This document shows, piece by piece, positions 11,808 through 15,887 of a stretch of 15,887 nucleotides of DNA. The position numbers and the translations under genes are program-made. Each line of letters starts with the position of its first letter. The first letter of the stretch is position 1. The DNA is from Candidatus Altiarchaeota archaeon (GTDB lineage: Archaea > Altiarchaeota > Altiarchaeia > IMC4 > SCGC-AAA252-I15): assembly GCA_043804895.1 (NCBI GenBank), contig JAZDIN010000019.1:1-15887 (forward strand). The letters run 5' to 3'. The notes below the pieces were generated by a model. It was not told where the DNA came from, made no database searches, and was given only the letters and a program-made list of their open reading frames with translations.

Positions 11808-11809
11808 CT

Positions 11810-11850
11810 TAAACTATCAGTTCATATATGTAAACTGTGAGTTTATATAA
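11810..11850 (-). promoter_or_regulatory. TATA box and two palindromic operators of the MNT-HEPN-cdc6 operon
   Basis: TTATATAAA (11850-11842, -); TAAACT-GTG-AGTTTA (11831-11845, perfect arms) and TAAACT-ATC-AGTTCA (11810-11824), 21 bp apart, between the TATA box and the ATG. Confidence 0.75.
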
Positions 11851-12058
11851 CGACTTGAGAGAGTATTTGGCTCAACCAAACAAACGTTCGGAAAAACCAG
11901 GTATCATTCTTCCCTCACTTATCTCAACTTTGAAAAACTCTTGTCTATTGTCCCATGTTTTATTCTTGACTTAGAGTAGTCAACCCTTATATCGCCCCAG
12001 CCACGACAAGCCCCTCCCCCACAGGGATTGGCGAGTGACCGCGCCTATTATTGTTCCA

Positions 12059-12072
12059 TTAAAAAAAAATAA
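12059..12072 (-). terminator. Oligo-U archaeal terminator after the 39-aa ORF
   Basis: Minus strand TTATTTTTTTTTAA, about 20 nt after the TAA at 12093-12091. Confidence 0.6.
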
Positions 12073-12090
12073 GTGGGGGTATGGGAGGGG

Positions 12091-12210
12091 TTAGATGTAT
12101 TTTGGCATGAATCCGAGCCTGTGGTAGGCGTACATCCGCCCGAATGTGCTCATGTTCTCTCCATTCTCCTGTGTGGTTGCCTTTCCAAGTCCTAGTATTT
12201 TTCTCATCAT
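12091..12210 (-). CDS. Small 39-aa protein MMRKILGLGKATTQENGENMSTFGRMYAYHRLGFMPKYI, function unknown
   Basis: Below the ORF-track cutoff. GGAGG SD 8 nt upstream (12223-12219), TTTTAAA TATA box at 12313-12307, oligo-T terminator downstream, host-like codons (AGA, ATA, AGG). Confidence 0.65.
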   Translation of the reverse strand: MMRKILGLGKATTQENGENMSTFGRMYAYHRLGFMPKYI

Positions 12211-12226
12211 TTTCTTTGCCTCCGAT

Positions 12227-12282
12227 ACCCCCGGAATCCAAGTGGATAATGAACAGCCAACCACCTTCCATTAGATGGGGGT
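12227..12282 (-). promoter_or_regulatory. Structured 5' leader hairpin of the small-ORF mRNA
   Basis: ACCCCC-ATCTAA-TGGA-A-GGTGG ... TCATT-A-TCCA-C-TTGGAT-TCC-GGGGGT. Four G-U pairs form only on the minus strand; the hairpin starts near the TSS expected from the TATA box (about 12284). Confidence 0.55.
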
Positions 12283-12395
12283 TTGACGTAATAGCTTGGC
12301 CGTTGGTTTAAAAGTACCTTGCGGTAGAGAGCAACGGAAAAGTAATCAAGTAAGTCGACCCGTATTTAATAGACGCACAGGAATAGTATTCTAAG

Positions 12396-13976
12396 GTGGA
12401 ACTGAAACTGGCCGATAACAGGTTTTTCCTGCTTTTCGTCGCCTTCGTATCCGGTGCCTCGATTATGTGCTTGGAGTTGGCTGCTTCGAGGGTTCTGGCT
12501 CCGTCGTTCGGCAGCAGCATATACGTTTGGGGTGCGTTGATTGGGGTTATCATGGCTGCCTTGTCGTTGGGGTATTTTCTTGGGGGATGGGTTGCGGACA
12601 GGGAGGGTGGCATCACTGCCCTGTTCAAGTGCATGGCCTACTCCGGAGTCCTCATCTCACTAATACCTGCTGTGAGCAAGCCTGTGTTAGCCTACACCAT
12701 GCGGTGGGGCCTGGTCTTCGGCCCAGTCGCCGCGTCTTTTATTCTTTTCGCCCTCCCGATGATTTTGCTTTCTATGGTGTCTCCGATGGTGGTGAAAGCG
12801 TATGCTGGGAAGATTTCAACAGTCGGCGGTTCGGCTGGTCTCGTATTCGCTGTTGCTACAGTCGGTAGCATGGTTGGTACTTTCAGTGCTGCGTTCGTGA
12901 TGTTACCGGCCTTGGGGGTGCGGGCCGTGCTCTTGGCTGATGCAGTAGTGGTGTTCCTGATTGGATTCGCGGGTCTTGGTAGGAGGGAGTATCTGCTTTT
13001 GGTTTTGTTTTTGGTTCCTGGTGTCGCGTCAGCGCATGCGCAGTGCGTTGACTTGAAAGGTTTTGAGCTCTTGTATTGCGGGGAGTCAGAGTATAATGTG
13101 ATAGGCGTGTATGATAGTCCATGGTATAGGGTGCTCACGCTCAATGACGGGAGCCTCGTGCAGACCGTGGAGAGGAAGGGTTCACCGCTGACTGGCATGT
13201 ACTATGACGTGTACTCCCTGGGGCCACTTCTAACCAGCGGCAAAAGAGTGCTCTTTTTTGGTTTGGCTGGGGGGACTGCGGTAAAGCAGCTTATCATGTT
13301 CCATGAAGTCAACGTCGATGCTGTTGAAATCGACGGGAAGGTGGTGGATGTCGCTAGGGATTACTTTAACGTCACAGAAGGTGATGGCCTGCGCATTTTC
13401 GTCGCGGACGGGAGGCGGTATCTTTCCGAATCTGGCGAGTATCAACGACCAGCGGCTAAAGCCGCTGGTTTGATACGCCGGAAACTGCCCAACCAAGTGG
13501 AGTCCCTGCGACTGCCCCCTGAAGAGGACAGTTTCCGAGCGTATGACATGGTGGGCGTGGACGTTTTCAACGGCCCGAACCTTCCGGTGCACATGTCGAC
13601 TGTCGAATTCTTCAGTGAGGTTTCAGACCATCTGGGCGATGATGGAGTGGTTATGGTGAATGTCGTGAGCTCCAAAGGGGACAGGAGCGTTGGTGATGCG
13701 GTAGCATACACGATGAAACAGGTCTTCCCGTCTGTGTACACCGTGGACTTGGAGTACAACAGGATTATTGTAGCCTTCAAGAAGGAGACTAGCGAGTCGG
13801 AGGTCATCAGACGCCTTAAAGCCAACTCTAACCCGCTCCTCAAAGGAGTAGTCGAGGGAGCAGTCCTCAACCTCCGCGAGTTCAACGCCGTAAGCGGCGT
13901 GGTGTTGACAGACGATAGGTCAAACATCGAGGAGTTGACGTTCAAGGCCTTCGCATCTCAATGGCACCAGCTGTAG
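12396..13976 (+). CDS. Membrane-domain (MFS-like) fused spermidine synthase-like/SAM-dependent transferase with a 34-aa insertion
   Basis: N-terminal TM region (SGASIMCLELAASRVLAPSFGSS...GSMVGTF); C-terminal Rossmann motifs VLFFGLAGG, VEID, ADGRRYL, YDMVGVDVF; TATTTAAT about 26 nt before the GTG start. Confidence 0.88.
   Translation: MELKLADNRFFLLFVAFVSGASIMCLELAASRVLAPSFGSSIYVWGALIGVIMAALSLGYFLGGWVADREGGITALFKCMAYSGVLISLIPAVSKPVLAYTMRWGLVFGPVAASFILFALPMILLSMVSPMVVKAYAGKISTVGGSAGLVFAVATVGSMVGTFSAAFVMLPALGVRAVLLADAVVVFLIGFAGLGRREYLLLVLFLVPGVASAHAQCVDLKGFELLYCGESEYNVIGVYDSPWYRVLTLNDGSLVQTVERKGSPLTGMYYDVYSLGPLLTSGKRVLFFGLAGGTAVKQLIMFHEVNVDAVEIDGKVVDVARDYFNVTEGDGLRIFVADGRRYLSESGEYQRPAAKAAGLIRRKLPNQVESLRLPPEEDSFRAYDMVGVDVFNGPNLPVHMSTVEFFSEVSDHLGDDGVVMVNVVSSKGDRSVGDAVAYTMKQVFPSVYTVDLEYNRIIVAFKKETSESEVIRRLKANSNPLLKGVVEGAVLNLREFNAVSGVVLTDDRSNIEELTFKAFASQWHQL
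13441..13542. mobile_element. 102-nt non-autonomous IS200/IS605-like mini-element (PATE/MITE-like) inserted in frame
   Basis: Removal restores ...ESGE-Y-DMVGVD. Left hairpin ATCAACG-ACCAGCGGC-TAAA-GCCGCTGGT-TTG and right hairpin ACTGCCCCC-TGAA-GAGGACAGT-TTCC resemble IS605/IscB-element end hairpins with CT(A/G)AAG loops. GTAT at both junctions makes the boundary ambiguous by about 2 nt. Confidence 0.75.
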
Positions 13977-15887
13977 CTCTTGTCCACGTCGCATAAGACC
14001 GTCTGCAATCGGGCTCTCTCTACCTTAAGCTCCTGGACCCTCTTCTCCAGAGCGTTTATCTTCAGCTGCTGCTCGTAGTTGACCTTGTAGTTGTAGCTGA
14101 CAAGCTCGTCCAGGCGGACTGATTCGCCGCCTGTTCCAGGGGGTAGTGAGTGAGGGTCTAACTCAACCAGGCCTCGGTCGTTCATGTAGTCTGACATGCC
14201 TGGTTTCTTGGGCTTTAGCTCATAGTTGACTATCTCCTCTAGGACGTCCCTGCCTTCGAAAGCTGATGTTCCAACGATTATGTAGTTATCGAAGGTTGCA
14301 TTGTTCCATTTCAAAGTACTTTTCCCAACGTCCCCCGTCATATGCCATCCTGAGTAGAAGCCTCCTGATCTTGCATCATATGCCCCCATATGAGCAGTGA
14401 TAGTATATTCGGGACCGAATACGAAGGCGATAATACTGTTGTTTGTAGCGGTTCTTATGAGCAAATCCCCAGCGTCGCTGCCTATTGTTCCGCCAGCGGT
14501 GACAGTGAATATGTCAGCCGCTCCGGCGGGATTCATGGGAACGCTCCACCAGAAAGAGCAGTCGGCGAGACGCTTGAGCTCGGGATCGAAGGTGTCCCGC
14601 CCGTTACGGTACATCATCTCGGCCATATCTATGACATTCTTTGCAAAGTGATTTTGAGCGTAACCGTGGCCGTGAACCAGGCCGTCCGCAGTGGCGCCAT
14701 ACCGGCGCAGGCTCCAGTATCCGAAGGGGCTTGCCAGTGAAAAGGCGACAAGCGGGGCGTTGTTCCAGGCCAGCCCGCCGGTGAGCGTGGTGATAACGAT
14801 GGAGGTCTCACGGCAGATCATGTCCATGCGGAAATCGCCCATCTCGGCAAGAGCCGGCAGGAGGAGTCCCCTTTCCAGGCCGCGCGCCTGTTCGGCGTCC
14901 ACCCCGCCTGAAGCCCGGAGGAATTCCAGACTTTCGACCATAGACCGGAAAGGATAGGTTTCCATGTACTTGGCGAATTGGATGCGGCCTTTGTCTATGG
15001 TGTTCGTGGCGGTGTCAAGGTCCATCCAGTCCCAGGTGAAATATTTCGCTTTGTACTGCTCCATGATACTGAGAGCGGCCCTGGCAAACCGGGCGTCCCC
15101 GGTCAGTACATAGGCCAGCGCGAGCGGGCGGGCGCCCCGCGCGAGGGCTTCATGACGGGATGTGGCGTAATCGCGGTCCAGACTCACTCCCGCAAAGTCC
15201 TTGGTACGATATTCCTTCCCCACGGGGCAGAAATGTTTGCCCGGCCCCTGGTATTGCAGGCCGCAGCGGTGTTCCTCGCAGTAATAATAAGCGGCGGCCC
15301 AGCCCGGACCATCGGGAATGGTCAGATTGCCCGCCAAAAGCCCCTTTGCCTGGGTGATGATTGAATCGCCTTCCTTCTTTCCCCAATCGGTAGAGGCATA
15401 TCTCTGACGGATGAGCGGGACGATGTTCTGACCGAAGACGGCATCAGCGCCCCTCTCCTTTGGCATGATGATAAGCGGCAGGGGGATGCGCTTGCATGAG
15501 CGGAGAATGCCTTCGTCGGAATCCACCGCGCCTTTGACTGCGAACACCGGCTGATACCACTCGCAGGAGAAAACCGGCAGGGTTGAGGCCACGCTTTTCG
15601 GGAGCCGCAGGGTCGCAGTGAAACGCGCGGAATCGCCAGGACCCACCACCGCTTCGAGCGGCGTGATAAGAGCTGAGCCGTACCGTCCCTCCGTCCGCTC
15701 CATACGGGCGGAGATGCTGCGGGCAACCGTGCCGCGGTTACGCACTACGAGAGGATATTCATACACGAGATCGCCCGAAGCATCAGAGACTACGCGAAAA
15801 TCCGTGCCGTTCCAGAAAACATTAAGATAACGCTTCACCAGCCGGACATTGCGGATGGATATTTTTCGGCGCTTCTCCAAATCCGGG
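13958..15887 (-). CDS. Apparently chimeric ORF, 5' end outside the window: alginate-lyase/heparinase II/III-like N-terminal part fused to a tail-fibre chaperone (S74/ICA)-like coiled-coil C-terminus
   Basis: No in-frame stop before the window edge. N-terminal part has GWAAYYYC...HFCP, LALAYVLTGDARFARAA and KGRI, with CGN Arg codons and higher GC. After about 14500: TSAFEGRDVLEEI..ELDPHSLP..EQQLKINALEKRVQELK..LCDVDKSYSWC, with host-like codons. Confidence 0.55.
   Translation of the reverse strand, partial: PDLEKRRKISIRNVRLVKRYLNVFWNGTDFRVVSDASGDLVYEYPLVVRNRGTVARSISARMERTEGRYGSALITPLEAVVGPGDSARFTATLRLPKSVASTLPVFSCEWYQPVFAVKGAVDSDEGILRSCKRIPLPLIIMPKERGADAVFGQNIVPLIRQRYASTDWGKKEGDSIITQAKGLLAGNLTIPDGPGWAAAYYYCEEHRCGLQYQGPGKHFCPVGKEYRTKDFAGVSLDRDYATSRHEALARGARPLALAYVLTGDARFARAALSIMEQYKAKYFTWDWMDLDTATNTIDKGRIQFAKYMETYPFRSMVESLEFLRASGGVDAEQARGLERGLLLPALAEMGDFRMDMICRETSIVITTLTGGLAWNNAPLVAFSLASPFGYWSLRRYGATADGLVHGHGYAQNHFAKNVIDMAEMMYRNGRDTFDPELKRLADCSFWWSVPMNPAGAADIFTVTAGGTIGSDAGDLLIRTATNNSIIAFVFGPEYTITAHMGAYDARSGGFYSGWHMTGDVGKSTLKWNNATFDNYIIVGTSAFEGRDVLEEIVNYELKPKKPGMSDYMNDRGLVELDPHSLPPGTGGESVRLDELVSYNYKVNYEQQLKINALEKRVQELKVERARLQTVLCDVDKSYSWCH

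Follow-up and report, generated by a model that had tools for sequence, protein, structure and literature searches.

How does a gene come to carry 34 extra codons within the catalytic domain of its product, and what becomes of the protein? The question is raised by a window of 15,887 nt (the whole stretch of DNA analysed; contig C19, JAZDIN010000019.1, of the Candidatus Altiarchaeota archaeon assembly GCA_043804895.1, here G000: 1.58 Mb, 71 contigs, 51% G+C, 88.7% complete), in which a gene for a fused membrane/spermidine-synthase-like protein is interrupted in frame by a palindromic 102-nt segment. We consider it highly probable that this segment is a non-autonomous derivative of IS200/IS605 insertion sequences (IS), of the kind called palindrome-associated transposable elements (PATEs), in which only the left-end (LE) and right-end (RE) hairpins have been kept, because its RE hairpin and its target word are shared with IS that bear a tnpA transposase gene in related genomes.

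The host protein joins a helical membrane half to a spermidine-synthase-like transferase half (Pfam Spermine_synth PF01564, E 8.9e-7), and its closest relatives are named "fused MFS/spermidine synthase [Candidatus Altiarchaeota]" at NCBI (MFS, major facilitator superfamily). The reading frame at 13440 runs ...GAG TAT CAA CGA ... GAG CGT ATG AC.., giving ...SESGE-Y-QRPAAKAAGLIRRKLPNQVESLRLPPEEDSFRAY-DMVGVD..., where QRPAAKAAGLIRRKLPNQVESLRLPPEEDSFRAY (34 aa) forms insert residues 350–383, between the DGRxYL helix and the YD strand of the catalytic domain. An earlier note on this DNA, made from the letters alone, had described a transferase motif broken in frame at 13439–13544; the sequence there is as described, and deletion of 102 nt restores GGCGAG TAT GAC. 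The 34 residues, whose broad presence in orthologues that note had set against a mobile insert, are absent from all 11 aligned orthologues (one each from 11 related genomes); the alignment gap is flanked exactly by the residue preceding the conserved Tyr on one side and by the conserved Tyr-Asp itself on the other; the empty-site DNA of the orthologues reads TATGAC, TATGAT, TACGAC or similar (TATGA/TACGA). A search of PDB sequences with the catalytic domain gave weak matches only (METTL13 5wcj, E 1.4e-7; aminopropyltransferase 6qmm), and the alignments to these solved methyltransferase-fold proteins end at the insertion point. An in-frame 102-nt insertion relative to the orthologues is thus confirmed. 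The limits first proposed, 13439 to 13544, need one correction: the ends can slide by the shared TAT/AT, and under the favoured model the element is 13441–13542, with the ATGA after it as the target.

The segment is one member of a repeat family. Searches of G000 (BLAST, nhmmer, and R1, a covariance model built on the first hairpin) return, besides the element under study, three full-length copies at 82–93% identity, a further copy that carries an internal insertion, and about 15 more remote ones sharing hairpin 1, some 20 related elements overall; the earlier note had counted a lack of other copies against its reading. Because these copies are dispersed in the genome, an ancestral loop of the protein is excluded. 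The 20 copies analysed were sorted into subfamilies IA, IB, IC and II. Subfamily IA comprises four copies of exactly 102 nt, the element under study among them, and the one with an internal insertion; IB and IC (99–103 nt) have the first hairpin of IA and a different second hairpin; family II (105–106 nt) has a related first hairpin. Six copies hold extra small hairpin modules between the two hairpins, and element lengths are accordingly 99–106 nt or, with nested modules, 156–207 nt, too short for a transposase. The paired structure of hairpin 1, which is the RE hairpin, is strongly maintained: in the alignment of all 20 copies (A1), pairing extends to 93% of cells, and in 9 of 15 pairs both sides are altered, a degree of covariation reached by none of 500 shuffles, with only 21–47% pairing in slid registers. 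R1 marks 25 distinct places in G000 (20 being the model's own sequences and five new, four of these weak) and has matches at E <= 0.001 in 12 of 49 genomes of the order; three of the four other genomes of the genus have no R1 match.

As single-stranded DNA (ssDNA), positions 13430–13555 fold into two adjacent hairpins (-28.5 kcal/mol, z = -4.9; equalled by none of 200 shuffles), in line with the two-hairpin anatomy that had been read by eye. On the transposon top strand, which would be the minus strand of the window, the element reads TCAT^ACGCTCGGAA-ACTGTCCTC-TTCA-GGGGGCAGT-...-TATCAA-ACCAGCGGC-TTTA-GCCGCTGGT-CGTTGAT^ (a caret marks an element end); in the strand of the window it begins ATCAACGACC..., and on the top strand its RE module is a hairpin followed by CGTTGAT^. 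The LE hairpin lies 10 nt from its end and the RE hairpin 7 nt. Paired changes are seen in both stems near the left end—the LE hairpin shows compensated changes among IA copies (CTGTCCCC/GGGGACAG and CTGTCCCTT/AAGGGACAG), and a long-range stem around it, drawn from minimum-free-energy folds, is retained in copy C62b by a matched 1-nt deletion in each arm. The counts of G:T and A:C in hairpin 1, whose asymmetry could serve as a clue to the active strand, are about equal.

Table 1. Features of the host gene and the inserted element, in window coordinates
Feature	Position	Strand	Description
Host gene	12396..13976	+	526 aa including the insert; fused membrane (MFS-like)/spermidine-synthase-like transferase
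Non-autonomous element, subfamily IA	13441..13542	- (putative transposon top strand)	102 nt; encodes host residues 350–383
RE module	13440..13475	-	foot helix TATCAA/TTGATA, 2-nt bulge, 9-bp stem ACCAGCGGC/GCCGCTGGT, loop TAAA
Linker and 5' arm of long-range stem	13476..13510	.	GGAAACTG (13481–13488) pairs with CAGTTTCC (13529–13536) around the LE hairpin
LE hairpin	13511..13532	-	ACTGCCCCC-TGAA-GAGGACAGT, 10 nt from the left end on the top strand
Target word ATGA (top strand TCAT)	13543..13546	-	directly 5' of the left end in top-strand sense; host codons TAT GAC

The flanks of the 20 copies point to a target word. In top-strand sense the word preceding the element is TCAT in 11, TTAT in four and CCAT in two (YYAT in 17 of 20; other words in three), which in the strand of the window appears as ATGA (11), ATAA (four) or ATGG (two) after the element. 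What is common to the two sides is only AT (TAT in family I), as would be expected if the right end itself finishes ..GAT. The TAT on both sides of the insert is what could suggest a classical MITE (miniature inverted-repeat transposable element), moved by a DDE transposase with a TA/TAT duplication; the kindred proposal would be an element of the repetitive extragenic palindrome (REP), bacterial interspersed mosaic element (BIME) or REPIN type, kept by a domesticated REP-associated tyrosine transposase (RAYT). We regard either origin as very improbable. Terminal inverted repeats, the mark of a classical MITE, are lacking (the best ungapped inverted match is 5–9 of 16 nt across the 20 copies), and beyond the repeated AT the conserved flank is one-sided (ATGA): it is a target word and not a duplication, because its GA belongs to host codons in the orthologues. 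There is no target duplication beyond the ambiguous AT, and insertion is 3' of a 4-nt word. A search of G000 with PF01797, which we take to cover RAYTs as well, found no Y1 or RAYT gene; the same hairpin forms the end of mobile, tnpA-bearing IS in relatives (below); and the element ends, ATCAAC../..GCGT, carry neither GTAG nor CGTC, the REP tags named in the abstract of PMC3733652.

It is the relatives that supply the autonomous counterparts of the element. In three genomes of another genus of the same family (G020, G018 and G019), R1 matches mark the extreme terminus of a repeated element, some 670 nt in length (positions 57–730 of a 751-nt query), whose gene product is a Y1 transposase (PF01797, up to 129 bits, with the HUH motif). 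The match at G020 C45:16401–16436 (41 bits), for example, is the last hairpin after a Y1 tnpA that scores 129 bits and has the HUH motif, and in G026, a closed genome of another family in the order, four of ten R1 matches (36–37 bits) adjoin tnpA genes or fragments. Read in tnpA sense, the ends of these IS can be compared with those of the element directly. Type 1 IS, from the G020/G018/G019 genus, have [T/C/G]TCAT^TACAA.. at nine left flanks, and four of their right ends read ACC-stem-TTCA-stem-GGT-CAT[T/C]CAT^, after which the DNA is unrelated; another type is bounded as TTTAT^...TTTAT^ (four further left-flank loci, two right ends). In G026, four right ends read ACC-stem-TTYA-stem-GGT-TGTTTAT^ before four different flanks (loop TTTA in three, TTCA in one), and the one full copy examined (L105) has the left end TCAT^TACATTTTAGCAAGGAT-ACTGCGGGC-TTTA-.... 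The right end of the element under study, ACC-stem-TTTA-stem-GGT-CGTTGAT^, follows the same plan, such that element and tnpA-bearing IS have in common the target word, the ACC...GGT RE hairpin and a 7-nt tail ending in AT; by eye, the LE hairpins of the element and of the G020 and G026 IS also all start ACTG, the IS having the loop TTTA. The autonomous relatives carry tnpA only (IS200 type) and no tnpB. Within the family, tnpA lies above the cut-off in three of 21 genomes (G020, G018, G008). Beyond the family, G026, G023 and G039 have a tnpA; in G030 and G006 the gene was not found. The kinship to IS200/IS605 ends that the earlier note had drawn from known systems is thereby supported, R1 matching a terminal hairpin directly downstream of an intact Y1 tnpA in G020, G018 and G026; the transposase-bearing element with matching ends that it asked for is present in these relatives and was not found in the assembly itself.

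The transposition of such elements can be rationalized from the chemistry of the group, in which insertion occurs 3' of a tetra- or pentanucleotide, excision is precise and releases a single-stranded circle, and the cleavage word is recognised by bases next to the hairpin foot (PMC5027513). By analogy, a Y1 HUH TnpA would cut one strand (the minus strand of the window) at a short word beside each hairpin, free a single-stranded circle, and paste it 3' of TCAT/YYAT in ssDNA, with no duplication of the target; in the host gene the word used would be the TCAT that lies opposite the codons TAT-GAC. The active strand, the cleavage positions and TnpA as the mobilising enzyme are what we infer from this likeness, and mobilisation in trans and reversibility would follow the same analogy. 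One feature of the right end agrees with it: ATCAA, which forms the 5' foot of the RE hairpin, has its exact complement in TTGAT of the tail, an arrangement that would fit the way in which IS200/IS605 elements present the cleavage word to TnpA. An 11-nt complement sought at the circle junction was present in none of the 20 copies (the searched interval included bulged positions), and a 9-nt complementarity in family I (GCGTATCAA with TTGATACGC), seen by direct reading, restates only that the foot helices abut.

Several observations weigh against the IS200/IS605 assignment or its details and are best taken together. Three of the 20 copies, C47 and the two of subfamily IC, lack the YYAT flank; no obvious complement of TCAT lies 5' of the LE hairpin; and the likeness of the LE hairpin to the IS left end is a by-eye, unscored one. 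No Y1 tnpA is found in G000 (no PF01797 match, and nothing significant by tblastn with the G020 TnpA) or in any of the five genomes of the genus, G000 included; the TnpB zinc ribbon (PF07282) likewise has no match in G000, where the iscB family was not searched for. The absence of tnpA is not proven, given a completeness of 88.7% and the frequency with which multicopy IS drop out of assemblies. The elements of G000 may be fossils, or their partner may lie within the unassembled 11%.

Y1 chemistry may reach further down in scale. A double-hairpin module of 54–56 nt is nested, after ..TTTGAT, in three copies (C62b, C3 and C7; modules at C62:2080–2135 in one IA copy and at C3:50484–50540 and C7:32918–33025 in two IB copies). 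C7 carries a further module of 51 nt within the first hairpin of the nested one, and three family II copies have a different module, of 56–57 nt, at the equivalent point. All of these are bounded by ..AT on both sides, as the host elements are, and therefore the same Y1 chemistry may move the modules too. Contigs of a freshwater-sediment metagenome run (X1, 0.07 of the sampled words) carry 13440–13489 with zero and two differences and other sequence on both sides; the match starts at 13440 and the contigs diverge before it, in two other contexts, with the insert junctions in the gene uncovered and no empty site among them. They may represent additional copies, or else hybrid elements, of this organism or of a relative.

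A quite different account would have the insert behave as an intron-like element, removed from RNA (for example by the archaeal splicing endonuclease at a bulge–helix–bulge, BHB) to leave a protein without the 34 residues. We give this account hardly any credence. Introns are frequent among the predicted tRNAs of G000—17 of 26 contain them, many long and hairpin-rich—and the central TTGATACGC can pair with the ends of the element in such a way that these meet. When the two genic copies (the second is described below) were scanned at every 102-nt cut position, with the usual BHB geometry, there were nevertheless only trivial GTAT/GTAT or ATAT/GTAT pairings with none of three inner-helix pairs, and a BHB intron is rejected for lack of the motif at the junctions of either copy. 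Hairpin 1 was not visible by eye in any of the 12 tRNA introns inspected of the 17 predicted, no R1 or nhmmer match coincides with such an intron, and one weak R1 match touches the edge of a doubtful "tRNA-Ser" call on C3. Rfam searches (evalue mode) at seven loci with copies assigned the element to no RNA family, giving only a tRNA and sub-threshold psRNA14 matches (E 0.04–0.5, 28–33 bits against a gathering score of 60). Most copies, moreover, are intergenic, and the flank word fits the target of a DNA transposon. As to the tRNA genes themselves, the 26 ARAGORN calls include ten with introns of 77–256 nt and two doubtful ones, a "tRNA-Stop" and the C3 "tRNA-Ser" of 350 nt; several of the introns share a hairpin module, GAGCCCCTTTCTTTC...GAAAGAAAGG, unrelated to the element under study.

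Returning to the DNA element that we favour, we examined how it sits in the genes it has entered. With its length of 102 nt and its lack of a stop in the host frame, the element leaves the host gene open. Six-frame reading of the insert finds two open frames, the host frame and one on the minus strand, upholding the observation that the host frame is the only open one on the plus strand. Across the family this is no rule: copies have a mean of 1.1 of six frames open, about the chance level, and the host frame is open in three of five IA copies, interrupted by a stop in the other two (C4b and C62b) and closed in all IB and IC copies. The description of the element as "peptide-donating" is therefore not sustained as a family property, given the stops in two of five IA copies and 1.1 open frames of six; the open frame is the product of chance and survivorship and not an evolved property of the family.

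A second genic copy lies at another locus. At C62:28160–28264 (-), a IA copy 93% identical to the element under study lies within a 448-aa coiled-coil open reading frame (ORF), entered in the same element frame to give the peptide YQRPSAEAAGLIRRKLPSRVESMRLPPEGDSFRAY at a site ...RK-Y^E-K...; the segment is absent in all seven orthologues, whose site reads ..RK-Y/F-E/G/T/R/K/S... In-frame palindromic insertion has thus taken place in two unrelated ORFs. The remaining 18 of the 20 copies are intergenic, often abutting a stop or start codon, and none was seen to break a gene. We best read the in-frame genic copies as survivors of selection.

At the level of the protein, an AlphaFold model (30 sequences) has a mean predicted local distance difference test score (pLDDT) of 90.3, falling to 61, 71 and 52 in successive blocks over residues 351–380, compared with 94 at 331–340 and 92 at 381–390. 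The insert is modelled as a low-confidence helix (350–363) and coil, between a helix at 339–348 and a strand at 383–388; the earlier note had asked for such a model to see whether the insert is a surface loop. In the protein the 34 added residues probably form a poorly ordered excursion that leads from this helix to the next Rossmann-like strand; the model fits a tolerated surface excursion, and the insert is presumably translated and tolerated. The insertion might instead be young or harmful and the host gene dead or dying, with the frame preserved by luck and not by tolerance. We judge this unlikely, although a random 102-nt stretch would leave about one frame in five open, much as the copies do, and the insert does lie inside the catalytic domain. 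The 143 residues 3' of the insert remain open and are 40–51% identical to the orthologues, and the fold from which the insert makes its excursion is otherwise modelled with high confidence. At 7% divergence from each other, the genic copies are not brand new, and that both are in an open arrangement, with none of the 20 copies breaking a gene, has the look of survivorship.

In the surroundings of the host gene, its 3' end overlaps by 19 nt (13958–13976) that of a convergent gene at 13958..15880 (-), which encodes an alginate-lyase/heparinase-like protein of 640 aa. The 588 nt upstream (11808–12395) hold no ORF of >=120 aa; ORFs of 70 and 108 aa overlap that stretch.

Intergenic copies have their own relationship to coding sequence. 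The target ATGA or ATGG contains ATG, and therefore several copies end exactly at the next start codon (C4:20770, C38:3435 (-), C3:~50411 (-), C4:~59664 and C35:~14038). The genes right after such copies include a 507-aa ORF, a 612-aa ORF, a HicB-like ORF and a HepT/DUF86-like ORF (labels from the first residues), and the copies cut these genes off from their former upstream DNA. At C26:23980–24118 (-), a family II copy occupies the 5' end of an ORF for a membrane protein of 551 aa, with an open frame and an ATG inside the element, which may thereby extend the N terminus or provide a new start codon.

Element length bears on the same theme. Whole-element lengths are divisible by three in 14 of 20 copies (102 nt in five, four IA and one IB; 105 in three; 99 in two; 156 in two; 162 and 207 once each), a count with a nominal binomial p of 9e-4 that is drawn from G000 only and from related, not independent, copies; as a sign of adaptation it is suggestive only. 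The units themselves tend to threes, elements measuring 102, 102 and 105 nt and nested modules 54, 51 and 57 nt. One might imagine elements shaped by a gene-dense genome, in which multiple-of-three units and an ATGA target would let them settle harmlessly in genes and at gene starts and leave precisely when Y1 TnpA is at hand, the 54–57-nt modules being their minimal form. We hold this to be a rather doubtful idea. Were it true, 34-aa protein inserts would be switchable, and heritable in either state, wherever Y1 TnpA is present, and an ATGA target at start codons and xAT-GAx codon pairs would spare genes.

Among described systems the closest are the PATEs of Haloquadratum walsbyi, which derive from IS605-type transposons in a genome where, with at most one exception, the IS200-type transposase genes are pseudogenes (Dyall-Smith et al. 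2011, PMC3119063). PATEs likewise lack terminal inverted repeats and have palindromes close to both termini, a 4–5 nt targeting word at the 5' end with no target duplication, and an end-to-hairpin distance that is longer on the left than on the right; they too form heterogeneous families with small repeats nested inside, in a genome where working tnpA is scarce or absent (PMC3119063). The elements described here differ in belonging to Altiarchaeota and not haloarchaea, in having autonomous relatives with tnpA alone (IS200 type, no tnpB), in a target, ATGA, that often coincides with start codons, and in two in-frame genic copies, which the accessible part of PMC3119063 does not report for PATEs. 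IS608 of Helicobacter pylori, the Y1 TnpA "peel and paste" element, offers the mechanistic parallel: hairpins near the ends, insertion 3' of a short word (TTAC in IS608, TCAT/YYAT here), a cleavage word that can pair beside the hairpin foot and precise excision, which would be expected here also (PMC5027513). Unlike IS608, the 102-nt element is gene-less, and its transposase was not found in G000.

For the consequence in proteins, the parallel lies with the Rickettsia palindromic elements (RPEs), repeats of about 100–150 nt found in frame in unrelated housekeeping genes, with an apparently tolerated peptide (PMC10969869). RPE families, however, keep a conserved ORF, whereas the frame is not conserved across copies here, and nearly half of the copies are genic in some RPE families, compared with two of 20 here (PMC10969869). 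The account of RPEs consulted names no mobilising enzyme for them. In-frame insertion of palindromic mini-elements is known for RPEs and for other bacterial MITEs (PMC10969869). IS200/IS605 is the most widespread archaeal IS family and the IS content of Altiarchaeota is high, according to a 2026 survey whose accessible text mentions MITEs once, in its background section (PMC13343696); neither such elements nor PATEs turned up for Altiarchaeota in our literature searches. The kind is thus already known, from PATEs in haloarchaea and from in-frame palindromic mini-elements in bacteria. What is new is that the lineage is Altiarchaeota, that ends and target word are defined, that two PATE-type insertions lie in frame within genes of an archaeon, and that copies frequently sit directly before start codons.

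The reading given here provides a mechanism, Y1 "peel-and-paste" transposition, for a class of small hairpin repeats in Altiarchaeota, and the defined ends and target word (TCAT^, ..TTGAT^) make that model testable. For annotation, inserts of this sort explain odd 34-aa "loops" and split alignments in proteins from metagenome-assembled genomes. The ATGA target predicts insertions right before start codons and bears on how expression survives such hits. In the two genic copies the outcome is RPE-like in an archaeon: a selfish palindrome becomes part of two housekeeping proteins.

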